Under the pieces are notes generated by a model. It was not told the origin of the DNA, did no database searches, and was given only the letters and a program-made list of their open reading frames with translations. A stretch of DNA of 64,000 bases from the NCBI GenBank assembly GCA_033763315.1, contig JANRKS010000036.1, positions 12,912 to 76,911 on the forward strand, read 5' to 3'. Of the stretch, positions 2,607 to 58,537 are shown piece by piece. The position numbers and the translations under genes are program-made. Each line of letters starts with the position of its first letter. Position 1 is the stretch's first letter. This DNA is from Deltaproteobacteria bacterium (GTDB lineage Bacteria > Myxococcota_A > Polyangia > Fen-1088).

Positions 2607-4106
2607 CTACCGTGGCACAGGCAAAGTGACCAAGAAACCATCGGCGCGCAACAACGAGGCATCGCCGTCGGCCGAGTGTGTGCCGGGGCCATTCAACATG
2701 CCGCCAATCAACAACTGGGCGTCGCCGTAACCAAGCACAAACCGCGCTTCATTGTGGCGCAGGCCCTGAGGCAAAGCCAGGCTCGTGGTTTCGCCAACCT
2801 CCGGCCATTTGCGCGCGAACCCTTGCGATGATTCAGTGATGCTTAGACCATTCGGGTTCTGCGCATAACCGCTCGCGCCCACAACCACCACGGTGTTTTC
2901 GTCCAACGGCAGCAGATCGAAAGCAATGTCGCCCGCGTTGACGTCAAGCTCACGCGTTTTCACAGCGCCAGTGCCGCCATCGATCTTCGCAACCAGCACG
3001 TCGAATCCCGTGCCCTGTGCGTTCCAATGCTCGGTGCGCCCCACCACATACGCGCCGCCATCCACCGCACGCAGCGATTGCAATTCGTCAGCCCCCATGG
3101 TTGTGATGACCGATGTTCCCAGCCGCCCCCCCGCAGGCGAAAGGCGCGTGACATAGGAATCCCAAGCGTCTGGATCGCCCATCAAGGTTTCACCGAATAC
3201 GGCCTTGTGGACCTTCAGAATCTGAGCGGTGGCGATGTCTGGATAACGTACGCCAACGTAGATGAGGCCATCGGGGCCGACCGCCAGATGCACGGCATAC
3301 TGTGCATTCACCAATCCAAAAGTATCGTAGCTGCCGCCGGTTAAGCCAAGCGGCGGTATCGACAATGGAGGGACCACAAGCGCCCGTGACAAAAGCGAGA
3401 AGGCGTCGCCCCCGCCATATCCCACGCGATAAGCAATCACCGAGTTGCGTCCGGTACGTGTGGCCAGCACCACCACCTCGCCTTGGGCGGCGATGCGACC
3501 GGTGTCATATGTGGCCTTCGTGATCGGGCCCGCGGGCGGGGGCACCTGTGGTAAGTCCGTGTCGATTAAAGGATCTTGTACATCCCAAACGCCCAACACT
3601 TCACCTGTCTCGTTGGTGCGTTCCAGCGAAGAGCCGTCCTTGGTGGCAAACAACAGAGTGAATTCACCACTGGGATGCAACGCCGCATCTAGCAGGTAGC
3701 GCATGCCCGATGATCCGCGGCTGCGGATTACAGCTCCGTCGGTTTTCAACCAGCGTATGGATCGACTCGGATACCCCAGTTCCGTGCGCAGATTTAAGGG
3801 ACGATCCAACACGACAGCAAAGATCCTGCCTTGCACCAGCGCCTTGAGCGGGTAGAGGCCATCGAATCTTAAGTCAAGCTGGGGTGGCCGGAGCGCATCA
3901 TCAACAACGCTGCCGTCAAACCCCGCATCGGACGCATCGGAGCGAGCGTCGCCAACATCGGACACGTGAGCGTCGAAAGCATCACCAACGGCGGCATCGG
4001 CAGGTGCGTCTGTGGACGCATCGGCGTCAGGGCCGTCCAATCCGGAATCGTTATCACACGCCGAAAAGAGCAGCAAACAGACCGGGATAAGTGAAAGGTA
4101 TTTCAT
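2607..4106 (-). CDS. Hypothetical lipoprotein, Asp/Ala linker followed by a beta-rich (propeller-like) domain
   Basis: 499 aa ORF, lipobox LFSAC, DA-rich linker. Confidence 0.75.
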   Translation of the reverse strand: MKYLSLIPVCLLLFSACDNDSGLDGPDADASTDAPADAAVGDAFDAHVSDVGDARSDASDAGFDGSVVDDALRPPQLDLRFDGLYPLKALVQGRIFAVVLDRPLNLRTELGYPSRSIRWLKTDGAVIRSRGSSGMRYLLDAALHPSGEFTLLFATKDGSSLERTNETGEVLGVWDVQDPLIDTDLPQVPPPAGPITKATYDTGRIAAQGEVVVLATRTGRNSVIAYRVGYGGGDAFSLLSRALVVPPLSIPPLGLTGGSYDTFGLVNAQYAVHLAVGPDGLIYVGVRYPDIATAQILKVHKAVFGETLMGDPDAWDSYVTRLSPAGGRLGTSVITTMGADELQSLRAVDGGAYVVGRTEHWNAQGTGFDVLVAKIDGGTGAVKTRELDVNAGDIAFDLLPLDENTVVVVGASGYAQNPNGLSITESSQGFARKWPEVGETTSLALPQGLRHNEARFVLGYGDAQLLIGGMLNGPGTHSADGDASLLRADGFLVTLPVPR

Positions 4107-4172: not shown

Positions 4173-4568
4173 ATGCCTGGCAAACCCTACCTTGTGGCCC
4201 TATTTTCAGTCCTGTTGACCGCCTTCGCTTCAATCTCGTGCGGCAGTGACGAAACCGAAGCCGATAAGCGGGGCGTGGGCGCAAGCTGCAGCACGAACGC
4301 CGATTGTTCTGAGAAGGGCCAAACCTGTTTGGCCTTCAAGGGCGGGTATTGCGGGGTTGCCGATTGCGTAGACGACACGGGATGTCCCGCCGCCTCGGCG
4401 TGCGTCAAGCATACCGATGGCAAGAACTATTGCTTTCGAACGTGCGTGGAGAAGCCCGACTGCAACGCCAATCGTCCCGTTGAATCTGAAGCCAACTGCT
4501 CGTCAAATCCAACGTTGGTGTCGGGCGCGAAGAACACCAAGGTTTGCGTTCCGCCAAGCGGTTCTTAA
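4173..4568 (+). CDS. Small Cys-rich lipoprotein
   Basis: Lipobox SISC plus 12 further Cys (GASCSTNADC, GGYC, YCFRTC), myxobacterial style. Confidence 0.8.
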   Translation: MPGKPYLVALFSVLLTAFASISCGSDETEADKRGVGASCSTNADCSEKGQTCLAFKGGYCGVADCVDDTGCPAASACVKHTDGKNYCFRTCVEKPDCNANRPVESEANCSSNPTLVSGAKNTKVCVPPSGS

Positions 4569-4591: not shown

Positions 4592-6059
4592 CTACCCTCG
4601 CACCGGCGCGTAAGCGCTGAGGCCAAACTTCGGATCACCGAACCCCGCGCCCGGGACGCTCGCGCCCACGGCCTCGGCGATCGCCGCAAACACACCATTG
4701 GGCGCCGTGTCTGCGCTCAGCTTGACGTGGCGGCCTGTCTTAAAGAAACCGTTGGCGTTGCCTGCCATCACCCAAGGGAGCCGTCGCACTTGGTGTCCAC
4801 CGCCATCCGACAACGTGTCTGCGTAAAGTACGATCGTGTTGTCGAGCATCGTGCCACCCTGATCGGTCTCAGCCGCCAATCGCTTTACCAGATACGCGTA
4901 CTGCTCGAACATCCAGCGGTTGGCGTCACGGTACATCGTCATTCCGGGCTCTTGCCCACTGCTGTGGGCCATGGCGTGCAAGTGCGAACTGTTAAATTCG
5001 CTGATCGAAGTGGAGCCCAGGTTGGGGTTAATGTCCTTTAGCCACGAGAAGTAGGCATGGTATCCGTTGGTGTCATACAGCGAGTAGCACGCTGTGCGCG
5101 TGATGCCGCATTTTATGGCATCAACGATGCATGTCCATCATCAGCTTCGACCGCCCAGGCACATTGGCTTCGTTCTTGACCAAGTAATCCAGTGTGGGAG
5201 CCGCGGGCGTCTTGCACATCGCGGGGGGCGATGAGAGCAACCGGTTGAGCTCGTCTTGACGTCGATGCACGCTTGTGAGGTGTGCCTCGGCTGCCTGGCG
5301 ATCGTCCCTGCCAAGGTTCTTGGCAAAACGTTCAAGATCTTTGCCGACAAAATCAAGCAGCCGCACACGCTTGCGCCACAGGCCCTCATTTGCCACGCCG
5401 CCTGTGCTCAGCTGCCGGCCACCGAAGATCTTCGTGAATACAGTTTTGACGTCAGGCTCAGGCGGGTTCGGCACATCCTTGTCGAACCACGAGGGGCAGC
5501 TCATGCCGGATCCACGTCGTGCTGTAGATAGATCGTCTGCATTGAGTGAAAGGTGCAGGGAATCAAACGCGAGGCTCGGATCCTTTTTGCGCAAAGCCTG
5601 CCCCACGAAACAGTCGAGCGAGGCGCTGCCCGCACCCATGTGGCATCCACCCGCGTTCAGCCGGCAGCCCCCGTCAGAGCTGGTGGCCGGACCTGGCAGC
5701 GTCCCCGTAAGCAAGTTGCCCCAATTGTGATGAGCGTCGCCATTGTCACCAGTGGTGTTGCCTTCGCTTTTGAGCCAGTTGCGTAAGGTGATGCCGTCTA
5801 AGAACAGCAGCTTCTCGCGCAGGTCTTTCAAGGGCGCCACCACGTGCGGAAACACAGCGCCGTTGAGGCTTCCATCCGCCCCCGCCCCCGTGGGCCAAAA
5901 GGTTTCAGCCCGCGTGCCGTTGCCTTTGACCACTGTGATAAGGCGTCCGAGCCCGCTGGCGGCGCTGGCGTGCCGGGTTTCAGCCAGCACCGGAAGCATG
6001 CCGGCGCCAACGCCAAGCGCACGTAAGAACGATCGGCGTTTAAGTTCCCACCTCGTCAT
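4592..6059 (-). pseudogene. DUF1552 (HXXSHH) family protein with Tat signal, split by a +1 frameshift near 5129 (pseudogene or sequencing error)
   Basis: KRRSFLR Tat motif, SLDCFVGQ, AEAHLTSV. The frame ends MMDMHR*, but skipping base 5129 gives MMDM-IVDAIKCGITR...HLHAMAH...TMLDNTIV...LPWVMAG, open and in frame with ORF 4592..4981. Confidence 0.85.
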
Positions 6060-7744
6060 TGGAGAACCTCACCCTGTGAAGGTTTGCGATAGATGAACGA
6101 CGGTTGCTGGGTGGCGAACGTAAGGAGCTGCAGAATGTCGCCACCTGCAGCCACAAACGCGTCGCCGATGGCTTTGTTCGCAGGCGCCAAGGCGTCGTCG
6201 GCGCCGCTTCTGTGGGCGTATTGCGACAGCACCTGCGCAAAACAACGTTGCGATTCCTCGCGCTTCGACAAAACCACCAACAAGCTTGCGGCGTTGCTGA
6301 ACGAGAGCGCTTCGCCGTTGGCCAGGGGCAGCGTCCCGTGTGTATCAATGGGCTTTCCATAGTCATCGGTGGTGCGTGTACGCCCGAGTTTGTCGAAGCC
6401 GTCGAACGCAAAACCCATGGGATCCATGAATTGATGGCAGCCCCTGCACACACCATCACGCGCGTGCTCCTGAAGCTGCTCACGCACCGAAGCCTCTGGC
6501 CGTCGCGGAGGTGGCGAAGGCACAGCCCCCTGGGGCGGCGGAACAGCGCCACAATCGGCCAGCCGCTCGTACACATAGCGACCTCTATGAATGATCGTTG
6601 CCAAAGGCGTGTCGGTGGTGCTCATCAAAAACGCAGGCTGCGTGAACAGCCCGGAGCGATCTGCGGCGTCAAGTTTCACCTTCGCCAAGGGCGCGTCTGT
6701 TTTCATCCCCGGCAGACCCAACGTTTGGGCCAAAGCACCATCGACGAAGGCCGTTTTCGACGCCAACAGCGATGTGAACGAATGATCACCGCTTGATCCC
6801 AAAACCAGATCCTCAAGGAACGCCCAGGTGGCCGCGAGGCTGCTTTGTTTGAGGACGTAGTCCTTATCCGTGGCAGGCGCGGTCTCAAGCGGCGCCAGCG
6901 GCAGCCACGCACGGAAGAAGCCGCGCAAGCCGCGCGGTGTCCTGACCGGATCTTGCAACATTCGTGTCACCTGCGCGGCCAACTGCGAAGGCGTCGATAG
7001 CTTGTTCGCACGTGCCGCCTCGAACAACGCCGCGTCTGGCATCGACTGCCACAGAAAATAGGACAAGCGCGATGCCACCTCGAAGGGCCCCAGTTTGACA
7101 AGGCCATTGGACGCAACGGGCACGTCGTCCGAGCGCTCCCATCGATAGTGAAACCGCGGCGACAACAACGCGGCACGCACCACATCCAAAAGCGCCGCCT
7201 GCAACGGCAGGCTTGCGTGTGCCTCATCAAAGATAGCCACAAGTTGCGCAAGCTCCTGGGCGCTGGGCGGATGGCGATACGCGCGTGTGGCGAAGGCTTC
7301 GATGAACGCAACGGCGCACGCCTTGTCGTCGTTGTTCTTTGGCTGGCAAGGCAACTGCTTCACGAAGCTGCTTTGTTCAAAGCGTGACACCAACCCGTCG
7401 AAGGCGTTCATCATTCGTTCAATCTCGTCGCTCGTGATCACACCACCTTCGGCCAAGCCTGCAGCGCCCAGCGTATCCGTTGAAAACAACTCGTCGACCG
7501 TTGGCTTTACGCCCAGTAAGTCTTCGAGTGTGTTGGCGTACTCGTCACGGGAGAGCCTTCGCAAAGGCACCACGGCCGCGGAAATTTGGCTGCCATGTGT
7601 TCGGCCACCCGTTTGTGTTTCCTGACCAGACGAACCGCCCATGCCCGCGCCGCCGCCATCTGACGCGCCATCATCTCGAACAAGGCCGGTGCAACCCAAG
7701 GCCGTGGCACAAACAACAAGAGCAGCCAGCCCAATCCAACGCAT
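6056..7744 (-). CDS. DUF1587/1595/1592/1588/1585 domain lipoprotein with c-type heme motif
   Basis: LRRLSRDEYANTLEDLLG, LLSPRFHYR, EVASRLSYFLWQSMPD, CRGCH, MDPMGFAFDGFD; stop overlaps the DUF1552 start. Confidence 0.9.
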   Translation of the reverse strand: MRWIGLAALVVCATALGCTGLVRDDGASDGGGAGMGGSSGQETQTGGRTHGSQISAAVVPLRRLSRDEYANTLEDLLGVKPTVDELFSTDTLGAAGLAEGGVITSDEIERMMNAFDGLVSRFEQSSFVKQLPCQPKNNDDKACAVAFIEAFATRAYRHPPSAQELAQLVAIFDEAHASLPLQAALLDVVRAALLSPRFHYRWERSDDVPVASNGLVKLGPFEVASRLSYFLWQSMPDAALFEAARANKLSTPSQLAAQVTRMLQDPVRTPRGLRGFFRAWLPLAPLETAPATDKDYVLKQSSLAATWAFLEDLVLGSSGDHSFTSLLASKTAFVDGALAQTLGLPGMKTDAPLAKVKLDAADRSGLFTQPAFLMSTTDTPLATIIHRGRYVYERLADCGAVPPPQGAVPSPPPRRPEASVREQLQEHARDGVCRGCHQFMDPMGFAFDGFDKLGRTRTTDDYGKPIDTHGTLPLANGEALSFSNAASLLVVLSKREESQRCFAQVLSQYAHRSGADDALAPANKAIGDAFVAAGGDILQLLTFATQQPSFIYRKPSQGEVLQ

Positions 7745-7751
7745 GACCCAG

Positions 7752-7782
7752 TGAGTGGGGCGATGGCCTTGCTTTTCTGATC
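7752..7782 (-). promoter_or_regulatory. Putative ECF-sigma promoter GATCAGAAAA-N12-CCCCACTCA for the DUF1592-DUF1552 operon
   Basis: Same two boxes and same 12-nt spacer as 8825-8855; ends 7 nt before ATG 7744. Confidence 0.7.
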
Positions 7783-7789
7783 GCGCCGA

Positions 7790-8776
7790 CTAAAAAGCCA
7801 CCGCGGCGCCCAGGCTGGCGTCAAAACGCAGCCAAGCGGCGCGAAAGACCTCCACTGGCGCTCCGCTGGCATCCCCCACGACGTAACGCGATTGCTGCCA
7901 CGGCACAGCGCCGGTGCCGGAAAACATCAGCGCCACGTGTGGAGACAACGGCCAGACAGCCACGGCGCCCAACCCCGCACCACAGCCGAAGTTCCGGTCC
8001 ACGGCCGTGGCGTCGATGTTCAACCCGCGCGCGGTTGTCACGCCGCAGTCCACGCCGGCCACGCCCCACAGGCCACGCCCCAAGGGTTGGGCCACCTGTA
8101 CACCGAGGCGCGCGTCCCGAAAGTTTGCGCTTGGCCGTCGCGGCAGACCACGGCCGTCGAACACGGTTGTGTTGAAGGTGTAAGCAAGCGTGACCGCCAC
8201 GTTTGTGCGTTCGCGCGGTCCCCCCTGCCACCGCGCCAAACCCAAGGCAGAACTGCCCGGTAAAGCGCCCCAACTTGCCCCCGCCGTCAAAGACAGGAGA
8301 TTTCGCCACGGCGGCGGGTTGGTTGGCAAGGTTGGCGGCTGCACAACCTTTGCGGGTTCCGACGCCAACCGCCCTTCAGGATCGATCATCATCGTCACGA
8401 TGAACGCAAGCGGGGGCAGCAGCTCGGCACAAGTCGCCGCCGGCAAAGTCAAGGACCGTTGCCCCTCCTGTGCCTTGCCTCCCGGCTCGCGCGCTGGCAG
8501 CTTGGTGGCGAGGTTGATCCGCCACACCTTAGAAGTGGCCCGGTTCACATCCAGGTCGATCGTGACGTCGTCGTGCGCCCCTCGCAGCGAGCCAAGCCGA
8601 TCCGCGATGCGCTCGCGCAGAGCCTCCGGTGTAATGCAGCCTGCTTGACCATCCACGTTCGTGATGTGAAGCCGCACAAAACCAAGCAAGGGCTGGGCCG
8701 CACGCGCCCTTTCGCCTGACGCCGTTACACAGGCCGCAACGATGAGAATGCAGAAGGCGGGGTGCAGTGCCGGCAT
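7790..8776 (-). CDS. Exported protein with N-terminal domain, Pro linker and beta-barrel-like C-terminus
   Basis: Signal-like MPALHPAFCILIVAA, two-Cys N-domain (GCITPEALRERI...ATCAELL), amphipathic Gly/aromatic strands ending in Phe (LGAAVAF); start 8776 or 8788. Confidence 0.65.
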   Translation of the reverse strand: MPALHPAFCILIVAACVTASGERARAAQPLLGFVRLHITNVDGQAGCITPEALRERIADRLGSLRGAHDDVTIDLDVNRATSKVWRINLATKLPAREPGGKAQEGQRSLTLPAATCAELLPPLAFIVTMMIDPEGRLASEPAKVVQPPTLPTNPPPWRNLLSLTAGASWGALPGSSALGLARWQGGPRERTNVAVTLAYTFNTTVFDGRGLPRRPSANFRDARLGVQVAQPLGRGLWGVAGVDCGVTTARGLNIDATAVDRNFGCGAGLGAVAVWPLSPHVALMFSGTGAVPWQQSRYVVGDASGAPVEVFRAAWLRFDASLGAAVAF

Positions 8777-8824
8777 GCGCGCTTTCATTACAACACAATC
8801 CCGCCGATGATGGGTTTGGGCTTT

Positions 8825-8855
8825 GATCAGAAAAAAACTCGCCTGCCCCCACTCA
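8825..8855 (+). promoter_or_regulatory. Putative autoregulatory ECF promoter GATCAGAAAA-N12-CCCCACTCA
   Basis: Ends 5 nt before the in-frame GTG 8861 of the ECF sigma gene; duplicated at 7752-7782. Confidence 0.7.
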
Positions 8856-8860
8856 ACCAC

Positions 8861-9403
8861 GTGTCTTCTTTGCTCGACCTGCCCGCGCTGTTCCGCGAGC
8901 ATGCGCCTTATCTGTGGCGCGTGTTGCGCCGGCTGGGTGCGTCTGCCACGGACGCGGAGGATCTTTGCCAGGAAGTGTTTTTGGTGGCCCACAGAAACCA
9001 AGCCACGTTTCGCGGCGATTCAAGCCCCCGCACGTGGCTCTATGGCATTGCTGTGCGTGTGGCCGCCGACCTTCGCAACAAGGCGCACATGCGCCAAGAG
9101 CGCAGCGTGGCCGTGCTTCCCGAGACACTCGTCGAAGCCACGCAAGATGATGCGCTTGAGCAGCAACGCGCACGGGTTCTTTTAGACCGCGCGTTGGCTG
9201 GACTCGATGCGGAGCGCCGCGCGGTATTCGTGTTGTATGAAATTGAAGATCTGACGCTGCAGGAGATCGCAGACTGCTTGCAGGTACCCTTGCAGACGGT
9301 TTACTCGCGGCTCAAAAGCGCGCGACAGGAAGTTTTGGCGCTGTTTGGCGAAACGCTTGTGCCAGGGGGAACGGCAACGCTTTTGGAGGGGAGTGGTCGA
9401 TGA
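8861..9403 (+). CDS. ECF sigma-70 factor
   Basis: Region 2 DAEDLCQEVFL...RTWLYGIA; region 4 RAVFVLYEIEDLTLQEIA...TVYSRLKSAR. Confidence 0.93.
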   Translation: MSSLLDLPALFREHAPYLWRVLRRLGASATDAEDLCQEVFLVAHRNQATFRGDSSPRTWLYGIAVRVAADLRNKAHMRQERSVAVLPETLVEATQDDALEQQRARVLLDRALAGLDAERRAVFVLYEIEDLTLQEIADCLQVPLQTVYSRLKSARQEVLALFGETLVPGGTATLLEGSGR

Positions 9404-10107
9404 AAACGTTCGAGGAACCACGTAGGTTGTGGCAGGACGAAGGGGCACCGGCAGCCTTGCAGAAGGCATTGAACGCTGGACGTCACGACAAGGCAAACGC
9501 GCGCGCGATGGCCGCGATGGCCGCAGGGCTCGCAGCGGCGGGTGTGCCGCTCGGCGGCGGAGCGGCGGTGGCGGGTGTGGGGGTGCTCAGCAAGGTCTTG
9601 ATAGGCGCCGCCATCGTGGGTGCGATGGGCAGCGGCGCTTATGTGCTGCAGACACAAAGAGCCAGCACGCCGCCGCAAAACGAAGGGGCAAGTGCACCGG
9701 CCACTCTCGTTGTGCCGAAGCCCATGCCGCAGCCCACAGCCGAAGAACGATCGGCCGCGGTGGCGCCTGCCATCCATCATGCAGCGGCGCCACCGAAAGG
9801 GCGTAAGCCGCAAGCGAGGGTGATCCAGGACGCAGAGCCCTCGATCATCGAAGAAACCGCGTGGCTCGAAGACACACGGCGCCTGCTGCCCAACCAGCCA
9901 AACCAAGCCCTGCTGCGTTTGCAAACGTACGCAATGAAGTTCAAGCACCCGCTGCTCGACCAAGAAGCAGCTGTTTTGAAGATCGAAGCGCTGGTCGCCG
10001 CGGGCCAGCGATCCACAGCGCAACAACGCGCCGGTGAATTTTTTCATAACCACCCACAATCGCCCCACCGTCAGCGCGTGCAAAGGCTGCTAAACCTGCA
10101 GCCATGA
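9400..10107 (+). CDS. Probable membrane-anchored anti-sigma factor (TM, Pro/Ala linker, TPR-like helical C-terminus)
   Basis: ATGA overlap with sigma gene; hydrophobic VLIGAAIVGAMG; C-terminal EAAVLKIEAL...FFHNHPQSPH typical of myxobacterial ECF partners. Confidence 0.7.
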   Translation: MKTFEEPRRLWQDEGAPAALQKALNAGRHDKANARAMAAMAAGLAAAGVPLGGGAAVAGVGVLSKVLIGAAIVGAMGSGAYVLQTQRASTPPQNEGASAPATLVVPKPMPQPTAEERSAAVAPAIHHAAAPPKGRKPQARVIQDAEPSIIEETAWLEDTRRLLPNQPNQALLRLQTYAMKFKHPLLDQEAAVLKIEALVAAGQRSTAQQRAGEFFHNHPQSPHRQRVQRLLNLQP

Positions 10108-11012
10108 AGCCCGCGGTGTGCGTGATGTTGTGCCGATGGGTCGGAATCGCTGGCGTGCTATTCCACGGTGGCTGCAACGACCACACGGGCACTCTGGGCG
10201 CATACTTCGGTGACGCGTCCGCCGATCTTCGTATAGAGGGGCCGAGGTGCGGCGATCTCACGTTGCCATCACAGTTGCCGCTGCCTGCAGATATTGGCTT
10301 TGCAGACTTACCCGCCACTTTGCCTCTGGGCGTGGTGAACGTCGCCATGGATTTCGCCGATAATCTTGGCGCCATTCCCGCGGGTTGGAGTCTCGGGGCA
10401 GGCAGCTACTCGGCAAGCCTTTCCGAGTTCGGTGCTCCTGGCGTCTCCGTCGAAAGCGATGCCATCAACCTGATCGTCAAACCGAAAGACGCTCCCACTG
10501 AGGGCAGCACCGATCGACTCTATTGGGGCGGCGAACTTTCGAGTTCACCCAAGTTCGGCACCGGCGTGTTCGTGGCGAAGGTAAGAAACGATGGTTGGCA
10601 AGCCGTGCAGTCGTCATTCTTCTTCGCGAACGATTACATCGATGCCTTGGGCAACAACCTGGGATGGAGTGGCGCAATCCTCGAATTCACGCACGATGGC
10701 CAACGGCAACGGCTGTCGGCCATCATTCACGAGTCGTCAACAGGGCGCCACGACGCACAGACGGTGCAGCTCGACGTATCGCCGACTCGCTTCACGACGT
10801 TGGCGTTGGTGGCGCTTCCCAGCGGGCAGGTGGGCTTTTATGTGGATGGCCAACGCCTATGGGAAATTAAAGGCGCACAGCTGCCGCCGATGCTTTCGTT
10901 CCGCTTCACACATTGGATCAACGGTCCGGCTGCGAACTTCAAGCCTAGCCCCACGCCGGTTGTCTTTAGCCTGGACGTTGTGGCCCACTACAAACTGACG
11001 TGCGCCTATTGA
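10104..11012 (+). CDS. GH16-like lipoprotein lacking two of the three catalytic acidic residues
   Basis: YWGGELSS..KFGTGVF..VQSSFF and VGFYVDG match GH16 lichenases; WDEIDIEF motif reads WSGAILEF. Confidence 0.7.
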   Translation: MKPAVCVMLCRWVGIAGVLFHGGCNDHTGTLGAYFGDASADLRIEGPRCGDLTLPSQLPLPADIGFADLPATLPLGVVNVAMDFADNLGAIPAGWSLGAGSYSASLSEFGAPGVSVESDAINLIVKPKDAPTEGSTDRLYWGGELSSSPKFGTGVFVAKVRNDGWQAVQSSFFFANDYIDALGNNLGWSGAILEFTHDGQRQRLSAIIHESSTGRHDAQTVQLDVSPTRFTTLALVALPSGQVGFYVDGQRLWEIKGAQLPPMLSFRFTHWINGPAANFKPSPTPVVFSLDVVAHYKLTCAY

Positions 11013-15507: not shown

Positions 15508-16848
15508 TCACGCAACCGCTGCCAAAAGGCGGCGGCGCGCCTCTTCCAACGTCGAACGTTCGCGCAAACCCTGGCGCAAGAACTGGTAAATGCGATCGAT
15601 CTTCGCGAGAGCCTCATCCACGCGTGGATCGGCGCCGCGCTTGTAAGCGCCCACAGCGACGAGATCGCGCTTGTCTTCATAAACCGCCAGCAGCTCGCGT
15701 AAGCGCACGGCGGCTTTTTGATGCTCTTCATCGGTGACCGCCGACATCACGCGCGACAGGGATGGCAGCACATCAATGGCGGGAAAGTGCCCCCGCTCGG
15801 CCAGCGCCCGCGACAACACGATGTGACCGTCCAAGATGCCACGGGCTTCGTCAGATATGGGTTCATCTAGATCGCCGCCGGCCACAAGCACTGAATAGAT
15901 CGCGGTGATCGAGCCCAGATTTGACTGCCCTGCCCGTTCGAGCAAGCGGGGCAGCAGCGCAAACACGCTGGGAGGGTAACCTTGGCGCGAAGGCGGCTCG
16001 CCGGCGGCCAGCCCCACTTCACGCTGCGCGCGCGCAAACCGCGTGAGCGAATCCATGATCAACAACACGCGCTTGCCTTGATCGCGAAACCATTCGGCGA
16101 TCGCCGTTGCCACAAAAGCTGACTTAAGGCGCACCAACGAGGGCGCGTCCGAAGTGGCACACACCACCACGGCTTTGGCGAGGCCTTGCGGCCCCAACGT
16201 ATCGTCCAAAAACTCGCGCACCTCGCGGCCGCGCTCGCCCACCATGGCGATCACGGTGACGTCCGCGTCGGTGTTGCGCGCGATCTGCCCCAGCAGGGTT
16301 GATTTGCCCACGCCCGAGCCCGCAAACAAGCCCAAGCGCTGCCCTTCGCCCACGGTCAAGCCACCGTCGATCGCTCGCACGCCAAACGACAACGGCGCGT
16401 TGATCCGCCGGCGGGTCATGGGATCAGGCGCCGGGCGATCCACGGCCCACGCCACCGTATCGCCCGCAATAGCGCCACCGCCATCGCATGGTTGGCCCAG
16501 GCCATCAAGCACGCGTCCCAGCAGCCCCGCGCCGACCTGCACCGTCAACGGTCGCCCCGTGGGGCTCACCATCGCGTCGGGCCCGATGCCAGCGATCGGC
16601 CCCAGCGGCATCAGAACCACTTCTTCGCCCCGAAAACCAACCGCTTCAGCCCGCAGCCGCTGACGGCCTTCATCAATGAACACCAGCTCACCCACGCGCA
16701 CGCCTGGGATCGTGGCGCGCACCACAAGGCCCGTCACTTCCGTCACGCGGCCCGCAAGACGCAGCGGGTTCACTTCGTCCAACGTGGCCAAGGCCGAAGC
16801 CAGATCCACCACGTCGGGCATCGGCGGCAGCTCGTTCTCGTCGCTCAT
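15508..16848 (-). CDS. sctN: Type III secretion ATPase (SctN/FliI family)
   Basis: [59 protein letters not shown]. Confidence 0.9.
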
Positions 16849-17453
16849 ATACGTCGTCCTGTGAGCGCGCGTTCAAGCGCGTCGAGTTGTGTGGAAAGGC
16901 GCGCGTCCAATCGTCCCACCGGGCTATCCACGACACAGCCATTGCGCTCGATGCCCGGGTCCGCGGTTAACTTAACTTCAACGCCGTTGGCCACACGTGT
17001 GGCCAAGCGCCCACGATCACGTGCCACAGCTTCCAGATCTTGAGGGTGCAACCGCACCACAACGGTGCCCGCGCGCGCCCGTACCTCAGACAACGCCTTG
17101 GCCACCATGTCCACCACAAAAGAAGGTGCCAAGGTCACCGCTTGCCCAACGATGCGCTCTGCCATGCGCCTGGCCAACGCCACCGCGCTGTCTTGGGCCT
17201 GCGCGCGCACCGCTTCGGCGTCCGCACGCGCCCGCACCATCACCTCAGTGGTGGACGCAAGGCCCTCTTGGCGCCCCACCGCAAAGCCAGCCTCGTAGCC
17301 CGAGCGACGCGCCTCCGCGCGATCGGCCTCGATCTCGGCACGCATCCGCACCACGTCTTCATGCGCGGTCTGACGAATCGAAGCCGCATCGGCATGCGCC
17401 TCCACCTCGGCCACCGCCATCACCCGCCCGTGTGATCGAATGATTCGTCCCAT
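16845..17453 (-). CDS. sctL: Type III secretion stator (SctL/FliH family)
   Basis: GxxxG repeats ([13 protein letters not shown]), [27 protein letters not shown]; overlaps sctN start. Confidence 0.85.
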
Positions 17454-17493
17454 CGCTAAGCCGCCTTCACAATGACGAAAAACCCAACGCATG

Positions 17494-18378
17494 TCACGCG
17501 GGCCCGCCTTCCAGCAGAAACCGCCCCACCACGGCCGGCAGACGCAAGGCGATCGTGCGCACGGCCGCCGGCCCCGCGGCGCTTAATTCAGGACGTGCGG
17601 CCGACAAGCCCACAAAAGCCAAACGCACCTCGGCCCCCGGGCGACCGGCGTCTTCTAGGGGCACGTCGTCGCGGCCGGCCATCGCTCCGGCCCGCGCCAC
17701 CGCCAACCGCGCTCGATCCCGCGCGGGCGGTTCCACGCTTTCGGCGGCAAAGCGCGCAATCACCTGTGCCCACGGGGCGCCCACGGTTGCCATCGCGCGC
17801 GCGCGCATCACAGGTTCCGCCCGGTGCAGCGATCGGCCCACCTCAGCGGCCCCTCGCTCACACAAAGCCCGCCACAAGACGGAGCCCGGCAGCCGATGCC
17901 ACAGCACCGCGCGCGTGCCCACCCCGGTGTCGTCGAAGGGGCGATCGGGGGGAAACGCGTGCTGCGCGGGTTCGGGATCCGACAGGCGGCCGAACAACAA
18001 CCACAAAAGATCGTTAACCACGGCCGCAGGCATCATTGCGGGCCGCGCTGTGCGCCAGGGGCCCTCGCCGCAGTTAACGCCGCTGGCCTCCAAGCGGGTG
18101 ACCAAAGCCGCGGCCACCTCAGGGCGCTCGCGGCCCAGCACGTAGCGAAGCCACGATGGGTGCAAGCTGCCGAGCCCTCCGGGCACCGAACTGGAAAACG
18201 CTGAAACGCCGCTGTTTTCTGCGAAAGCCCGCCCCGGGGCTGCACCCGCGGAGGCGACCTGACGCAACCCGCCATCGCGCCACGTTGCCGGGATCGCGCC
18301 CCCCAAACGCGCGAAAACCACGCGGGCACCGTTGACCACGAGGCCCACGTGCGGCGCGTTTCCATCGGGCGACGTCAT
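17494..18378 (-). CDS. Hypothetical protein in the sctK position (SctK-like)
   Basis: Ala/Arg-rich ORF with LHPSWL directly upstream of sctL; assignment is mainly positional. Confidence 0.5.
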
Positions 18379-18496
18379 GCCCGCAAAGTATCGCGACGCG
18401 TGCCAAAGCGAAAGCCGCCGACACACACTTCTTGCACGCGCAGATCACGCCTTTATGGGCGCAATCCAATTCGATGTGGTATCACAGCGCGCCCCA

Positions 18497-25492: not shown

Positions 25493-27646
25493 TTACTTAG
25501 GCATCACGCAGCTGTCAGTGCAAGCGGCCGGCAAATAGCACTCCGTGGTGTAGTCCTTGACCATACGATCGGTGTTGAAGCGCCAGCCCATCGTCTTGAA
25601 GGCGCGCTTCATACGACGCACCCAAGCGCGAGGGATGCCGTCACTGTCACGATCAAAGAAGGTGGGGATCACCTGGTTCTCCAGCACGTCATACAGCGAC
25701 AAAGCGTCGCGCCGATCTTGCTCTTCTTGCGACACGTGCGTGCGACCGTTGCCGATCGCAAAGCCGTTTTCGCCGTCCCACGCCTCGGCCCACCACCCGT
25801 CGAGGATGGAAAGGTTGAGGCCACCATTGAGCAACACTTTTTGCCCGCTCGTGCCGCTGGCTTCCAAGGGTCGACGCGGGTTGTTCAGCCACACATCCAC
25901 GCCCTGCACCAAGTGGCGCGCCACATTGATGTCGTAATCTTCCACGAACACCACTTTGCCCAGCAAATCAGGGCGCAGCGATGATTGGTAAACCTCGCGC
26001 AGCACGGCTTGGCCCGGCTTGTCAGCCGGGTGCGCCTTGCCGGCAAACACGAATTGCACGGGGCGCTTCGCATCGCCCATGATGCGCAACACGCGATCGA
26101 TGTCGCTGAAGATCAAGTTGCCGCGTTTGTATGTGGCAAAGCGCCGCGCAAAACCGATGGTGAGCGCGTGTGGATCCAAGGCGGATTCGGCCGCCCTGGT
26201 TAACTCAGGATCGAGGCCCACGCGGCTGCGGTGCTCGCCCACTTCACGGCGGGCAAACCGCACCAAGGACGCACGCAAAATACGGTGCACTTCCCACAGC
26301 TCGGCGTCATCCACTTCATCCATGCGCGCCCACAGATCTGGATTGGTGATGTTCTCCATCCAGTCGCGGCCGAGGTACTTACGGAACAGCTCCTGCATCG
26401 CCGGCGCCACCCAGGTGCGCAGGTGAACGCCGTTCGTGATGTGCCCCACGGGAACTTCGTCTTCACGGTGGTGCGGCCACAGCACTTGCCATGCCTTGCG
26501 GGTCACGCGGCCATGCAAGGCCGAAACGCCGTTCGCCCAACGCGACATCTTGAATGCCAGCACGGTCATGCAGAACATTTCGTTTTCGTCGCGTGGCTCA
26601 ATGCGGCCGAGGCCCAGGAATTCATTGCGGCCCAAGCCCAAAGACCGACGCAGGGGCTCAAGGTGAGCGTCGGCCAATTCGGGCGAGAACCGATCGTGGC
26701 CAGCGGCCACCGGTGTGTGCGTGGTGAACACGGTTGATTGCGCCACCTCTTGCGCCGCATCGGCGAAGCTGGCGCCCGTATCTTCCATAATCGAGCGCGT
26801 GTATTCCAAAGTGGCAAAGGCGCTGTGGCCCTCGTTCAGGTGCATGATCGAGAAGTCGATGCCAGCGGCGCGGAGGGCACGCACGCCGCCCACGCCCAGC
26901 AATAGCTCTTGCCGAATGCGCACGCGTGAGTCGCCAAAGTAAAGCCGGGCGGCCAAGGCCCGATCTTCGGGCGAATTGCGTTCAACATCGGTGTCCAACA
27001 GCAGCAAGCGCGCGCGACCGATGTTGGCTTGCCACACCTGCGCGTGCAGCACGGAGTGATCCATCGGCACTTCGATGATGAGCGGGTTGCCATGCCGGTC
27101 CAGCAAGGGAGATGCCGGCACGCGGTCAAGCTGGGCCCGGTTATATTCCGCGTGCTGCTGCCCCGACTCGTCGATCAGCTGACGAAAATACGATTCACGG
27201 TAAAACAGACCCACACCCACAAGTGAGAGCCCCAGATCGGACGCCGTTTTGATGTGGTCGCCGGCCAGAATGCCCAAGCCGCCGCTATAGATGGGCAGCG
27301 ATTCATGAATGCCGAACTCCGCCGAGAAGTAGGCCACGGGCCGCACCTTCAAAGGGGCCGCATGTGTGCCCGCCCACGTCGTAGCGTCGGGCGAGAGATA
27401 GGCACGAAACTCGCGGTGAACCTTATCGATGCGGGCACGCAACACGGGGTCTTCGGACACGCGAGCCAACTGCCCGGGAACGACCGTTTGATAGACAGCC
27501 AAAGCGCTGTGGTTTGAATCGTGGAAAACGTCGGGGGCTAAATCACGAAATAAGCGGATGGCGTCTGGGTTCCAGGACCACCAAAGGTTCGACGCTAAGT
27601 CACGGATCTGCTCGCCAAGCTGTTCAGGAGTACGTGTTGTGGACAT
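25493..27646 (-). CDS. glgP: Alpha-glucan phosphorylase
   Basis: YSGGLGILAGDH, HLNEGH, FARRFATYKR, EASGTSGQK (PLP lysine). Confidence 0.95.
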   Translation of the reverse strand: MSTTRTPEQLGEQIRDLASNLWWSWNPDAIRLFRDLAPDVFHDSNHSALAVYQTVVPGQLARVSEDPVLRARIDKVHREFRAYLSPDATTWAGTHAAPLKVRPVAYFSAEFGIHESLPIYSGGLGILAGDHIKTASDLGLSLVGVGLFYRESYFRQLIDESGQQHAEYNRAQLDRVPASPLLDRHGNPLIIEVPMDHSVLHAQVWQANIGRARLLLLDTDVERNSPEDRALAARLYFGDSRVRIRQELLLGVGGVRALRAAGIDFSIMHLNEGHSAFATLEYTRSIMEDTGASFADAAQEVAQSTVFTTHTPVAAGHDRFSPELADAHLEPLRRSLGLGRNEFLGLGRIEPRDENEMFCMTVLAFKMSRWANGVSALHGRVTRKAWQVLWPHHREDEVPVGHITNGVHLRTWVAPAMQELFRKYLGRDWMENITNPDLWARMDEVDDAELWEVHRILRASLVRFARREVGEHRSRVGLDPELTRAAESALDPHALTIGFARRFATYKRGNLIFSDIDRVLRIMGDAKRPVQFVFAGKAHPADKPGQAVLREVYQSSLRPDLLGKVVFVEDYDINVARHLVQGVDVWLNNPRRPLEASGTSGQKVLLNGGLNLSILDGWWAEAWDGENGFAIGNGRTHVSQEEQDRRDALSLYDVLENQVIPTFFDRDSDGIPRAWVRRMKRAFKTMGWRFNTDRMVKDYTTECYLPAACTDSCVMPK

Positions 27647-27780
27647 TACCCCGGCAGTAAACCACGACCACCCAAATCCGAAACAAGAAAAAATTGCAGC
27701 CTCGGAAGCTTTTTTGAGCGTTTTTTGGCGGCACTTTCGCCAGAGTTTTTCCGGACCTGGACTATACTGCTGACCAGTTC

Positions 27781-29040
27781 ATGCCTCATCAACCGAGACT
27801 CCTCGCCTTGATCATGGCCGGCGGCAAAGGCTCCCGGCTTTTTCCCCTGACGCGGGATCGCGCCAAGCCTGCCGTTCCGTTCGGCGGCCGCTACCGAATC
27901 ATCGACTTCGTTCTGTCGAACATGGTGAATTCGGGCATCCGTTCGGTCTATGTGCTGACCCAGTACAAAGCGCAGTCGCTGGTCGAACACGTGCAACGTG
28001 CCTGGGGCTCGCGCAACAGCCATTCCGATTTCGTAACCGTGGTGCCGGCCCAGATGCGTATGGGCGAATCTTGGTACCGCGGCACCGCCGATTCAGTGTT
28101 TCAGAACTTTCACATGGTGGAAGATTGCAAGCCAGACCTGCTGTTGGTCTTCGGTGCGGATCACATCTACAAAATGAACGTCCGACAGATGGTCGACTTT
28201 CATCGCGAACGAGATGCCTTGGCCACTGTGGCGTGCATCCCCGTGGCTGTGGAGGAAGCGTCTCAGTTCGGCATCATGGAAGTCGATAGCCAAGGCCGCA
28301 TCATAGGCTTTGAGGAAAAGCCGCAATCAAACCCCAAGACGATTCCAGGCGATCCCACCCGGTGCTTGGCCTCGATGGGCAACTACATTTTTCACCCCGA
28401 AGCCTTGGCCGAAGCCTTGCTGGCAGACGCACGCCGCGAGTCGCGCCACGACTTCGGCCACGACGTGATCCCGGTGTTTCAAGAAACCGGCCGCGCGTAC
28501 GCCTATAATTTTTACGAAAACCGCATCCCTGGCGCCAAGTCGACCGAAGAAAACATCTACTGGCGCGACGTCGGCACCATCGACGCCTACTACGAAGCGG
28601 CGCTGGATTTGAAAAACGTGGTCCCCGCTTTGAACCTTTACGGGTGGGAGTGGCCGATCATGACGGCCAGCTATTCAGACCCGCCGCTCAAAATGGTGTT
28701 CGACGATCCAGGCCGGCGCGGCACGGTTTTGCAATCAACGGTGGCTGGTGGTTGCATCATCGCCGGTGGTTTCGTCAAGGATTCGGTCTTGGGCCGAAAC
28801 GTGTTCGTTGACGAAGGCGCCGAGGTTCGCGATTCGGTCATCTTCGATAACGTCTACATAGGCAAAGGCGCCCGCATTCAGCGCGCCATTATCGACAAAA
28901 ACGTGCGGGTGGCCGAAGGCGATCTCATCGGCCACGACCTGGCCCGCGATGCCCTCCGGCACGTGGTCAGCGAAGGCGGCGTCACGGTGGTGGCCAAAGC
29001 CCGCGACACTTTGACAACCCGTCTGCGCGACTACGGCTAA
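27781..29040 (+). CDS. glgC: Glucose-1-phosphate adenylyltransferase
   Basis: AGGKGSRL, RAKPAVPFGGRYRIIDF, DHIYKM, YWRDVGT. Confidence 0.96.
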   Translation: MPHQPRLLALIMAGGKGSRLFPLTRDRAKPAVPFGGRYRIIDFVLSNMVNSGIRSVYVLTQYKAQSLVEHVQRAWGSRNSHSDFVTVVPAQMRMGESWYRGTADSVFQNFHMVEDCKPDLLLVFGADHIYKMNVRQMVDFHRERDALATVACIPVAVEEASQFGIMEVDSQGRIIGFEEKPQSNPKTIPGDPTRCLASMGNYIFHPEALAEALLADARRESRHDFGHDVIPVFQETGRAYAYNFYENRIPGAKSTEENIYWRDVGTIDAYYEAALDLKNVVPALNLYGWEWPIMTASYSDPPLKMVFDDPGRRGTVLQSTVAGGCIIAGGFVKDSVLGRNVFVDEGAEVRDSVIFDNVYIGKGARIQRAIIDKNVRVAEGDLIGHDLARDALRHVVSEGGVTVVAKARDTLTTRLRDYG

Positions 29041-29092
29041 ACGGCATCCACCCGAAGCAACGTTGAGGTGGTAAGTATGCGCAGAGCGTTCC

Positions 29093-31525
29093 ATGCCTAA
29101 AAAACAAGCTCCGAGCCCGACGCCCCCTGCCCCTGCGTCTCAAACGCGGACGCCCCCGCCAGGTCAAGCCGGGGCAGCGGCCACGATAGCCTCACCGCCG
29201 GTAGCGATGTCGTCGCCTGCCACGGCGCAGGTAAACCAGGCTCCGCAAGCCAAAGCACCCACCCCTTCAGCGCCGCAGCCCAAGGCGAGCACCCCAGCAC
29301 CCGCCGCACCCGTGGCCATGCCCGCCAACGCCAAGCTGGTGCTGTGGGTGGCCTCCGAGGCCGTGCCTTTGGCCTCTACAGGCGGCTTGGGCGACGTGGT
29401 CGGCGCGCTGCCGGGTGTCTTGCGCGACATGGGTTGGGACGTGCGCTTGTGCCTGCCGTATTACCGGCACCAAATCAAACAACCCGTTTCGGCGCCCCTG
29501 TTCCACTTCGACCTGCCGCTGGCCGAACCGTTGGCCGTGGATGTCCGCCAGTTGATCAACCCTCCCGCGGGCGTGCCCACGTACCTCATCGACTGCCCGA
29601 TGCTGTTCGATCGCGTGGGCCTCTACGTGGACGGCAACGGGCCGTTCGTCGATAACCCCTTCCGCTTTGGTGTGTTTCAGTTGGCGGCACAGCGACTGGC
29701 CGCACGATTAGAGCCCACGCCTGCGATCATTCACAGCCATGATTGGCACGCGGCCTTGTTGCCGGCGCTTGTTCGGTTGCCTGGCCCCACCCACGAAAAG
29801 CTCGCCAATGTTCGAACGCTGTTCACCATCCATAACCTTCAGTACCAGGGGGATAGCGATCGCGGCATCATTGAGGCGCTGCGTTTGCCGCCCCAGCTGT
29901 GGGATCCGAATTGGGCGGAGCACTTCGATAGATTCATTCCGCTCAAAGCCGCATTGATGACGGCCGATCGGATCACCACCGTCAGCCCCACGTATGCCGA
30001 AGAGTTGCGTTCGCAAGAGCGCGGCATGGGCTTGGATGGCGTGATCCGAAGCCGGGGCACCGACATGCGCGGTTTGCTCAATGGCATCGATGAGGTGTCG
30101 TGGAACCCGGCGGTGGATCCCGCGTTGGCCGCGCACTTTTCAGCCGCAGAAGTGCAGGGTCGTGCCGCATGCACAAAGGCGCTGCGAGCAGAGCTCGGCT
30201 TACCTGATCGACCAGACCGCCCTTTGATCGGCTTCATCGGTCGTTTGGTGGGTGACAAGGGCGTGGATCTGATTCTCGATGCTTTGCCCGAGCTGCTTGA
30301 TCTCGACGTGCAAGTGGTTGTGCTTGGTTCGGGCGACGCCGCCTTGGAGGCCCGCTTGCGCGCAGCCGAAGCCGCCTATGGTCCGCGTGGCTTCCGCACG
30401 GTGATCAAGTTCGATGCGAAATTGGCGCGCCGGATGTACGCGGCCTTCGATATGCTTTTGGTGCCGTCGCGGCTTGAACCGTGCGGCCTGGTGCAGCTTT
30501 ATGCCCTTCGCTATGGCGCCGTACCCGTGGTTCACGGCGTGGGCGGCCTGCGCGACACCGTTCGCGAGGACGAAAACGGCTTCGTGTTCAATGAGCCCTC
30601 CGCCGTCGCCCTTACCGATGCTGTCACTCGCGCGGTGAGGGTTTGGGACGATCAAATCGCGTGGACCGCCCTGCAGGTCAAAGGCTTGCGGCAAGACTGG
30701 TCGTGGAAAAACGCCGCCGTCCCTTACGATGCGCTTTACCGCGAAGTTCTAAACACCCCGATCCGGCGTTCGTTCACGCCGGCCGTCGTGGTGACGGAAG
30801 CAGCGGCCGCGCGGGCCGGCACGGAGGCCACGGTCACGGATTCGAAGGCCCCAAGCGCCGCGCCACCTCCCCCGGCACCACGGGCCGAAACCACCGCGTT
30901 TCGTTTGATGGTGCAGGGGCCGCGCAGCTTGTTTGCTTATTGGTCCGCCGAGGCCCAAGGCCCCTTCGATCTTGTGGTTGAAGAGCGCCCGTCAGGCGTG
31001 ATGTACACGGCCGCCGCCGATCTGCCCGCCAAAGGCGAACGCTGGTTGGGCGCCTTGCCTGATCAGGCGTATCGCGCGTTCTTGCGTGATCGCGCCGGCC
31101 GCGTGGTGGCGCTATCGAACGCCGTTGTCACACCTTTGCAAGACCCACCTCCCCCGGCCGCAGAACACCCTGAGTGGCTTGAGGCCGCTGTTGAAGTGGG
31201 CGTGTTCAACGAAGACGGCGAAGGCCGGCGTTGGTCAGCCGTATTCAAAGGCGCGCCGGCGTGGACCAAAACCAAAGATGGCAGCGTTGAGCCTTCGTGG
31301 CCCGAAGACGGACATGGTGTGCCCGCCACAGGCCCCGTTCTGGATGGCGTTGGCCGGCCTGTGCCGCACGTAGGTGCCTCAGAAGCTTTGCATGCGCCTG
31401 CGCACAGCAAACGCGACATCAACCTAAGCAACGTGTCGATGCATCCGCCTGAGGGTCATTCCGCCGCGCTGGCCTCTTCTGCCGGCGTCGCACGCTTGGG
31501 ATCTGGTTCGGGACGCACGCGATGA
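29093..31525 (+). CDS. glgA: Glycogen synthase with Pro/Ala N-tail and DUF4912-like C-terminal extension
   Basis: TGGLGDV, HSHDWH, TIHNLQYQG, EPCGL; extra C-terminal part with LMVQGPRSLFAYW. Confidence 0.88.
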   Translation: MPKKQAPSPTPPAPASQTRTPPPGQAGAAATIASPPVAMSSPATAQVNQAPQAKAPTPSAPQPKASTPAPAAPVAMPANAKLVLWVASEAVPLASTGGLGDVVGALPGVLRDMGWDVRLCLPYYRHQIKQPVSAPLFHFDLPLAEPLAVDVRQLINPPAGVPTYLIDCPMLFDRVGLYVDGNGPFVDNPFRFGVFQLAAQRLAARLEPTPAIIHSHDWHAALLPALVRLPGPTHEKLANVRTLFTIHNLQYQGDSDRGIIEALRLPPQLWDPNWAEHFDRFIPLKAALMTADRITTVSPTYAEELRSQERGMGLDGVIRSRGTDMRGLLNGIDEVSWNPAVDPALAAHFSAAEVQGRAACTKALRAELGLPDRPDRPLIGFIGRLVGDKGVDLILDALPELLDLDVQVVVLGSGDAALEARLRAAEAAYGPRGFRTVIKFDAKLARRMYAAFDMLLVPSRLEPCGLVQLYALRYGAVPVVHGVGGLRDTVREDENGFVFNEPSAVALTDAVTRAVRVWDDQIAWTALQVKGLRQDWSWKNAAVPYDALYREVLNTPIRRSFTPAVVVTEAAAARAGTEATVTDSKAPSAAPPPPAPRAETTAFRLMVQGPRSLFAYWSAEAQGPFDLVVEERPSGVMYTAAADLPAKGERWLGALPDQAYRAFLRDRAGRVVALSNAVVTPLQDPPPPAAEHPEWLEAAVEVGVFNEDGEGRRWSAVFKGAPAWTKTKDGSVEPSWPEDGHGVPATGPVLDGVGRPVPHVGASEALHAPAHSKRDINLSNVSMHPPEGHSAALASSAGVARLGSGSGRTR

Positions 31526-56810: not shown

Positions 56811-57034
56811 GGGAGTCCTTGCGGCGGCAGAACACATTACCATGGGCAGGGACCGCCTTGTCCACTCCCCGTCGCCCTCCCCCAGCCCCCGTTCCGGTGG
56901 CGAAGCGAAACTCACTTCATGTTTTGCCGCACCCAGCCGATAGGGCTGACGTGCTTCACAACGGGGGCACGAACGCGCTCGGACCACGCAACAGGAAACG
57001 GCGCGCTCTCAACGATCTTTGCCGGAGACCTGCC

Positions 57035-58459: not shown

Positions 58460-58482
58460 CCACTGTCTTCGAGCGCTTGATC

Positions 58483-58520
58483 AAAAGGGGGTCCGACACA
58501 TGGTCGGGCCCTTTTCTTTT
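58483..58520. terminator. Probable bidirectional intrinsic terminator
   Basis: AAAAGGGGGTCCGAC...GTCGGGCCCTTTTCTTTT between convergent genes. Confidence 0.7.
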
Positions 58521-58537
58521 TAGACAAAGGCCACCCA

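Follow-up and report, generated by a model that had tools for sequence, protein, structure and literature searches.

We examined a candidate signalling locus built around an extracytoplasmic function (ECF) sigma factor in a Deltaproteobacteria bacterium (Myxococcota_A; Polyangia; Fen-1088), within a window of 64,000 nucleotides (assembly GCA_033763315.1, contig JANRKS010000036.1, positions 12,912 to 76,911) whose own numbering is used throughout. The sigma gene (8861..9403, + strand) encodes the Pfam domains Sigma70_r2 and r4_2; its product has regions 2 and 4 only, with no region 3, the make-up of ECF sigma factors of about 200 residues, and scores above the cut-off for TIGR02937. Its frame is open further upstream, and the probable GTG start at 8861 was placed from the orthologue at locus L031 and the position of a promoter-like motif. 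A putative anti-sigma gene (9400..10107, +) and a lipoprotein gene (10104..11012, +) follow, and ATGA overlaps at 9400 (sigma/anti-sigma) and 10104 (anti-sigma/lipoprotein) bear out the translational coupling proposed in a first-pass annotation of this DNA. Transcribed divergently, as a gene separate from that of the anti-sigma factor, is a predicted outer-membrane barrel gene (7790..8788, −), with a DUF1592 lipoprotein gene (6056..7744, −) and a DUF1552 gene (4592..6059, −) beyond it. Judged by sequence and comparison, a four-gene unit of barrel, anti-sigma, sigma and lipoprotein is widespread, and the locus holds one copy of it, best read as TonB-receptor-free trans-envelope ECF signalling.

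The layout from the DUF1552 gene to the lipoprotein gene, whose product is GH16-like, is kept gene for gene at two orthologous loci, L031 and L044, with sigma identities of 57% and 66% (L049 repeats L031 and was counted once), and the closest titled relatives of the sigma factor are Myxococcales/Polyangia records. Barrel matches were found in 25 of 31 genomes, at no fewer than 150 loci (150 among the matches listed, with 31 further ones), among them all 18 genomes from the family of the window's genome and 6 of the 12 taken from elsewhere in the class. In a phylum-wide draw, in which at most 28 candidates were scored per genome, the barrel was found in only 6 of 80 genomes, a count of finds that does not amount to absence from the rest. 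Neighbourhoods were scored at 100 of the listed barrel loci, from the genomes of 21 relatives; loci of the own genome, those used as seeds and most of what remained for genome G028 were set aside. An ECF sigma gene lies within 2.2 kb of the barrel at 89 of these loci, and sigma together with an anti-sigma factor ending in tetratricopeptide repeats (TPR) at 79, values that lean high for reasons given below; 5 of the 11 loci without sigma end less than 1 kb away at a contig boundary. Among these relatives, the conserved neighbourhood proposed as a check on the first-pass annotation was found.

Gene order varies around this constant content: barrel then sigma at 71 loci, sigma, anti-sigma then barrel at 14, divergent at 3 and convergent at 1. 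The divergent layout of the window is therefore the exception, its barrel gene being flipped relative to most relatives. At L180, L190 and G000 C5:290360 a DUF1592 operon runs divergently from a barrel-then-sigma unit, from which the layout in the window may have arisen by a flip of the barrel gene between the two. The genome itself (7.63 Mb, 90.85% complete) has 79 sigma-70 region 2 matches, and by profile 29 of its ECF genes have a barrel or TPR neighbour, with more diverged barrels beside most on inspection. We found no description of the four-gene module in the literature searched, which left most subscription papers outside it.

The barrel protein, whose gene starts at 8788 or 8776, has no Pfam or NCBIfam match, and its family surfaced only through gene neighbourhood and profile: when the neighbours of 83 sigma-like genes were listed, a protein of about 300 residues recurred beside many ECF genes. 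Aligned with sequences of relatives, these proteins form one family: behind the signal peptide come a domain in which two cysteines are invariant and a proline-rich linker, and the beta-rich C-terminal part mostly closes with phenylalanine, as it does here. Single-sequence searches with the barrel recovered only itself, a leave-one-out profile from 10 paralogues did not recover it, and a PDB sequence search with the barrel profile returned nothing significant. With clusters formed at 50% identity, a profile of 28 sequences matched 27,036 of them, of which 20,473 score E<=1e-10 and 6,797 E<=1e-30; the weakest counts are perhaps inflated by GC-rich, Pro/Ala-rich composition. The nearest 30 Atlas clusters have no Pfam family in common, and members of the three displayed come mostly from Myxococcota. 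In the AlphaFold2 model (pLDDT 87.3, pTM 0.60) a periplasmic N-domain of beta-alpha-beta-beta-beta-alpha topology precedes an eight-stranded barrel, the latter matching OmpW (Z 16.0, rmsd 2.9 over 166 residues) and also a Thermus outer-membrane protein, NspA and OprF. The 7790-8776 region, first annotated as barrel-like, does model as an outer-membrane barrel, and we predict a small barrel with a periplasmic N-terminal domain. Matches of that N-domain are middling (TraT Z 8.2, VtrA/VtrC Z 7.3, Cj1090c Z 7.3, and TolB hits) and near the noise level of the search tool used. Longer forms with barrel and anti-sigma fused were sought among 8000 candidates and none was found, a null that carries little weight.

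The putative anti-sigma factor has a short cytoplasmic N-terminus, a single hydrophobic segment at 9562-9618 (mean KD 2.14), a Pro/Ala-rich linker and a C-terminal BamD/YfiO-like TPR domain (9826-10104). A hydrophobic segment with mean KD>=1.6 is present in 80 of 86 related proteins, and the C-terminal domain of the family is TPR-like (YfiO in 19, TPR_14 in 19 and TPR_6 in 14 of 101 members), its profile matching BamD structures with a best E of 2e-9. The complex of barrel N-domain and anti-sigma TPR domain, modelled from alignments paired by locus, reached an ipSAE of 0.77 (runs 0.77, 0.80 and 0.75) against 0.01 for the best of three controls, so this part of the complex modelling put forward earlier came out in favour of binding. 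Of 157 solved complexes 116 reach the score mark used, as do 2 of 215 mismatched pairs; for our own alignments these figures are only roughly valid. Contacts agree to at least 83% between runs, with partner pLDDT of at least 84; in the model, the TPR groove cradles the last N-domain helix (residues 86-101) and the strand 71-81. Covariation points to the same contact: over 101 locus-paired rows, the 18 scorable of 25 listed contact pairs have a mean MI-APC z of 1.27, a value inflated by relatedness, compared with 0.17±0.18 under shuffled pairing, and none of 200 shuffles reached 1.27. All of the top 15 covarying inter-chain pairs include N-domain residue 73, 87 or 96-100, and R75, L44 and E47, among the most conserved residues, sit in the predicted interface. 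Binding of the barrel N-domain to the anti-sigma TPR domain is thus supported, not shown.

The resemblance to BamD raises another reading of this contact, in which the barrel serves as a scaffold on which the lipoprotein is displayed or assembled and the TPR domain monitors assembly of barrel or cargo, feeding back on export instead of sensing a molecule from outside. The BamD and YfiO matches speak for it, as does the likeness of the N-domain to domains of assembly-type proteins (TraT, Cj1090c and the TolB hits), yet those N-domain matches are the ones near noise, and the predicted target of the TPR groove is a folded N-domain helix rather than the C-terminal signal of the barrel. An eight-stranded barrel is, moreover, too narrow for a folded protein to pass. 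We regard this scaffold role as decidedly unlikely.

As to the target of the sigma factor, a shared promoter-like motif, TCAGAAAA-N12-14-CCAC (in summary TCAGAAA(A/T)-N13-CCAC), is informative. It occurs exactly twice in the window, at 8827..8852 (+) before the sigma GTG, a probable autoregulated and leaderless promoter, and at 7755..7780 (−, TCAGAAAA-N-CCAC) directly upstream of the DUF1592 ATG; none of 100 shuffles gave a match. The two copies are inverted relative to each other, one on either side of the barrel gene. Both places recur in L031, and the pattern was written after seeing the four sites of window and L031; L044, looked at later, has the exact motif before DUF1592 and one change before sigma. 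Motif positions are kept at both loci despite diverged DNA between the genes. Genome-wide, the strict pattern was found 3 times against about 2.5 expected by chance, so that the evidence lies in position and conservation, not in rarity. The motif had first been annotated before both arms of the locus: this stands for sigma and DUF1592, whereas for the barrel gene no such motif lies upstream, the second site falling between barrel stop and DUF1592 start. Immediately ahead of their start, related sigma genes carry a CCACC element resembling this one, and the part upstream of it differs, as expected of autoregulated promoters.

Across the genome, 16 of 29 module ECF genes lie within 5 kb of a DUF1592 gene, compared with 5 of 38 other ECF genes (Fisher p=4e-4) and 12.5% of other genes. 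For pairs of sigma and nearby DUF1592 genes, a shared upstream motif outranked those of 25 random DUF1592 upstream regions in 5 of 17 cases (p=4e-4), and in 4 of 16 (p=3e-3) with this locus removed. A search for a wider regulon by weight matrix, whose training set included one intragenic site, gave no further convincing intergenic site, and a scan for sigma-70 promoters and terminators stayed at chance level. The motif in three genomes and the enrichment of DUF1592 beside modules support the earlier proposal that the sigma factor controls the DUF1592/DUF1552 pair.

The DUF1592 lipoprotein (lipobox Cys18) has all five PSD/PSCyt domains (DUF1592, 1588, 1595, 1587 and 1585) and a CxxCH motif at 6448-6434, while the DUF1552 gene (HXXSHH) has a twin-arginine signal and its PF07586 match lies in two frames. 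The annotation of the pair as a haem-motif lipoprotein with a Tat-exported partner therefore holds for domains and motifs, with the reservation that DUF1552 is frameshifted in the assembly. It has one extra base near 5128 relative to the intact L031 orthologue, to which its two parts are 57% and 62% identical, and a contig from run X2 (depth 2.4) lacks the base at 5128, 24 bases from the contig end. The frameshift is possibly an assembly error or a strain-level lesion, and DUF1552 is probably intact in close kin, to judge from the orthologue and the X2 contig. A contig of run X2 is also one base shorter at 11044, in the intergenic stretch after the GH16-like gene, which hints at single-base insertions in the assembly. 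A model of the intact L031 protein (pLDDT 86.6, pTM 0.90) resembles members of the alkaline phosphatase/sulfatase superfamily (a sulfatase with Z 17.5, rmsd 4.1 over 287 residues), with His and Asp residues conserved, from which we predict that fold for DUF1552; a PDB sequence search with the DUF1552 profile returned nothing significant, and no function for DUF1592/DUF1552 was found in the literature searched.

Such pairs are abundant: the genome has 120 DUF1592 (PF07631) and 130 DUF1552 matches, and the 122 and 130 genes called for them form 113 adjacent pairs. Of the 122 DUF1592 genes 118 encode CxxCH, and of the 130 DUF1552 genes 113 encode a twin-arginine motif. With about 120 copies in 7.6 Mb, adjacency alone proves nothing, and the pair in the window could be a mere neighbour of the module and a decaying copy at that, as the background of 12.5%, the near-chance number of strict motifs and the frameshift would allow. 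Set against this, two of the three strict motif sites in the genome lie exactly upstream of sigma and DUF1592 and recur in L031 and L044, and a near-identical strain appears to be without the extra base. We consider a chance neighbourhood very improbable.

The fourth gene encodes a lipoprotein with its lipid-bearing Cys24 at 10173, a tag CNDHTGTLG at 10173-10199 and a body of GH16 jelly-roll fold, recognised through Atlas structure hits (PF00722 clusters, TM 0.63-0.71) and an ExoK model match (E=0.008); a PDB sequence search with the protein returned nothing significant. The catalytic motif of GH16 enzymes is E-x-D-x-(x)-E, read as WDEIDIEF in licheninases. At the corresponding site (10665-10688) the window protein reads WSGAILEF, and its orthologues, 34% (L031) and 44% (L044) identical and equally degenerate, read WTGAVIDL and WSGAVLEF, so that the nucleophile position is Gly in all three. 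The lipoprotein was thus rightly called a degenerate GH16, and a conserved dead fold suits a binding role. Of the further claim that an inactive GH16 senses a glycan, the inactivity stands; with a body that is interchangeable between modules, a sensor role for GH16 and a glycan signal are plausible though unproven.

This interchangeability is seen across the slot that follows the module, where a same-strand gene was called at 71 of 105 loci examined and a lipobox was recognised by script in 50. The tag, [LIV]G at an offset of 6-7 from the lipid Cys, is present in 29 of these 50 module lipoproteins, in 14 of 771 other lipoprotein candidates and in 2 of 88 DUF1592 proteins of the own genome, by a heuristic lipobox rule and with a motif chosen after examples had been seen. 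Among the 71 slot genes, bodies are DUF1592-type in 6, FG-GAP in 6, PD40 in 3, di-haem oxidoreductase in 2 and GH8 in 2, with lectin, lyase, pectinesterase, GH54, GDSL and others as singletons; 41 have no Pfam family, and 6 have a carbohydrate-type family at E<=1e-5. DUF1592-type bodies in the slot (L136, L185 and L197) can bear the tag in place of the usual C-[ST]-G start, from which it follows that the tag goes with the slot. Past the lipobox, DUF1592 lipoproteins at large mostly begin with C-[ST]-G-x-[VI], which may be a sorting or docking signal in its own right. The module lipoproteins of L156 and L179 have weak GH8 matches, and those of L150 and L161 have bodies without a Pfam hit that we take, by eye, to resemble nucleoside hydrolases lacking the usual Asp-rich motif, possibly more pseudo-enzyme bodies.

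Being co-transcribed under the sigma promoter, the lipoprotein could equally be an output. On this view the chain of barrel, TPR and sigma is real but senses the state of the envelope (membrane spacing, vesiculation or barrel damage), and the tag is a sorting or display signal rather than a dock for signalling. Translational coupling downstream of the sigma promoter agrees with this, as do the great diversity of bodies, which take in seemingly intact enzymes such as one of GH54 (E=6.5e-124) as well as DUF1592, and the precedent of Dma1, whose regulon includes lipoproteins (PMC10927553). Yet some 30 modules in one genome, each with a different lipoprotein, better fit many specific inputs, the tag is specific to the slot rather than general to exported lipoproteins, and the GH16 body has been conserved in all three orthologues although it is dead in each. 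Sensing of envelope state is, in our estimate, rather unlikely, if the strongest of the alternatives.

The reading that we favour, at slightly better than even confidence, is a four-part trans-envelope chain of barrel, TPR anti-sigma, sigma and interchangeable lipoprotein that drives the DUF1592/DUF1552 pair. The barrel in the outer membrane would hang its N-domain into the periplasm on the proline-rich linker, and the anti-sigma factor would span the inner membrane and reach up on its own, its TPR groove gripping the last N-domain helix, as predicted by the model and supported by covariation. Gene order and architecture suggest that the cytoplasmic N-terminus of the anti-sigma factor holds the sigma factor. 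The tag just after the lipid anchor of the lipoprotein probably docks on the barrel, and the body may supply the input or purpose of the module, here a dead GH16 that may bind beta-glucan. A change at the outer membrane would loosen the contact of barrel and TPR, the anti-sigma factor would then probably be proteolysed by analogy to FecR/PupR, and the freed sigma factor would transcribe its own operon and the DUF1592-DUF1552 pair from matching promoters, with a haem-motif lipoprotein and a Tat-exported protein of phosphatase/sulfatase fold as output. More tentatively, and at less than an even chance, such modules may form a plug-and-play class in Myxococcota, in which a constant chassis of small barrel, N-domain/TPR clasp and ECF sigma factor is combined with a tag-docking lipoprotein whose body is swapped and is often a dead glycosidase or lectin fold.

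Several points weigh against the four-part chain. All of its support is computational. Because the seeds of the barrel profile were themselves sigma-adjacent and the genomes scored are related, 89 and 79 of 100 lean high. In neither domain is the predicted interface as a whole better conserved than the remaining residues (p=0.13 and 0.32), the covariation draws on related sequences and on the same alignments as the complex model and is not independent of it, and the complex score may be helped by memory, as the binding of a helix by TPR is common and BamD structures exist. As to the target, a DUF1592 or DUF1552 gene is present at only 18 of the 100 barrel loci, so this target is not general; most of the 17 sigma/DUF1592 pairs, all but the 5 given above, are without a top-ranked shared motif; and the DUF1552 frame of the window stops at 5121, its C-terminal third resuming in another frame to 4592.

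Placed beside known systems, the module resembles FecIRA and a split Bacteroides Dma, yet lacks what defines either. In SigI/RsgI, to which the locus had been likened, a carbohydrate-binding sensor is fused to the anti-sigma factor. Here the anti-sigma factor ends in TPR and the glycan-type fold is a separate lipoprotein; that comparison proved weak, and Bacteroides Dma/Reo and ECF267 are closer. Dma1 joins an anti-sigma factor to an eight-stranded barrel by a disordered linker (PMC10927553), and envelope-state sensing has been proposed for Dma. Dma/Reo (ECF21) and the present module share an inner-membrane anti-sigma factor, a disordered periplasmic linker, an eight-stranded outer-membrane barrel and the lack of a TonB receptor, and some ECF21 subgroups have anti-sigma and barrel on separate genes. 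Dma itself is one polypeptide, whereas here two proteins are joined by a predicted clasp of TPR and N-domain; the barrel, which has no Pfam match, bears an N-domain of its own in which a Cys pair is invariant; a lipoprotein with a tag and a variable body makes up the fourth member; and the hosts are Myxococcota.

The likeness to FecA-FecR-FecI and PupB-PupR-PupI lies in an outer-membrane protein whose N-domain contacts the C-terminal periplasmic part of the regulator, as described in PMC9249621 and, in our case, as modelled. The regulator is single-pass in both, and 9 of 87 related anti-sigma factors carry a FecR domain, in contrast to that of the window, which has none. Here, too, the barrel has eight strands rather than being a TonB-dependent transporter with a plug, and TPR is the contact domain. 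None of the genome's 10 PF00593 matches, nor its single STN match, is on the contig of the window (C36), and the barrel N-domain has no STN match. Together with barrel fold, co-occurrence and predicted complex, the lack of a TonB receptor on the contig supports the original proposal of a trans-envelope ECF module without a TonB-dependent receptor.

Among myxobacterial systems, ECF267 of Sorangium and Chondromyces has a single-pass FecR-TPR regulator encoded at +1 and no FecA-like or other TonB-dependent receptor; its regulation is described as unclear, kinases are suggested to take part, and the part of PMC7826278 available names no barrel or lipoprotein partner. It shares with our module a myxobacterial ECF sigma factor, a regulator ending in TPRs and the lack of a TonB-dependent receptor, and differs in combining FecR and TPR, where the window protein has TPR only and a subset of its relatives has both. 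DdvS/DdvA of Myxococcus xanthus is likewise a myxobacterial ECF sigma factor with a transmembrane anti-sigma factor bearing periplasmic TPRs, in that case DdvA, which combines a TPR-CHAT protease fold with a zinc-bound anti-sigma domain; the abstract of PMC11506125 mentions no barrel partner. For the PSCyt3/PSD genes of Planctomycetes and Verrucomicrobia, which have the same domains as our pair, PMC5615132 states that function is unknown and suggests a link to carbohydrate metabolism; for the pair in the window, a sigma factor of its own and a promoter can be named as candidates.

Around the locus, the GH27 and GH97 glycosidases first annotated on its flanks are present, and as conserved neighbours or as support for a glycan reading they drop out, neither being found at the orthologous loci. 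We rejected them as components of the system: tblastn gave no match to either in L031, L044 or the 100 barrel loci, and no motif precedes either gene. Another GH27 copy of the genome (C32:398436) adjoins another module sigma gene. A small Cys-rich lipoprotein (4173-4568, +) and a 499-residue lipoprotein (2607-4106, −) are single-copy in the genome, have no Pfam match above cut-off and are not kept beside orthologous loci. Further along the window are an operon end with a T3SS_ATPase_C ATPase, a FliH/SctL-like gene and an unannotated gene (15508-18426, −) facing two SurA/PPIase genes, a glycogen/starch cluster of phosphorylase, nucleotidyl transferase, synthase and GH57 branching enzyme (25493-33099), and an EGF-repeat protein with an apiosidase-like/DUF5060 protein (56819-60888).

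For ECF267-like myxobacterial sigma factors, this work offers a candidate partner, a specific predicted interface, a tagged fourth component and a promoter. It also gives a handle on DUF1592/DUF1552, in that whatever induces the sigma factor points to what the pair acts on. If the plug-and-play class were true, it would explain the dozens of orphan ECF sigma factors per genome, assign a function to more than 20,000 unannotated clusters of one barrel family, and provide a first regulator and inducible promoter for DUF1592/DUF1552 pairs.

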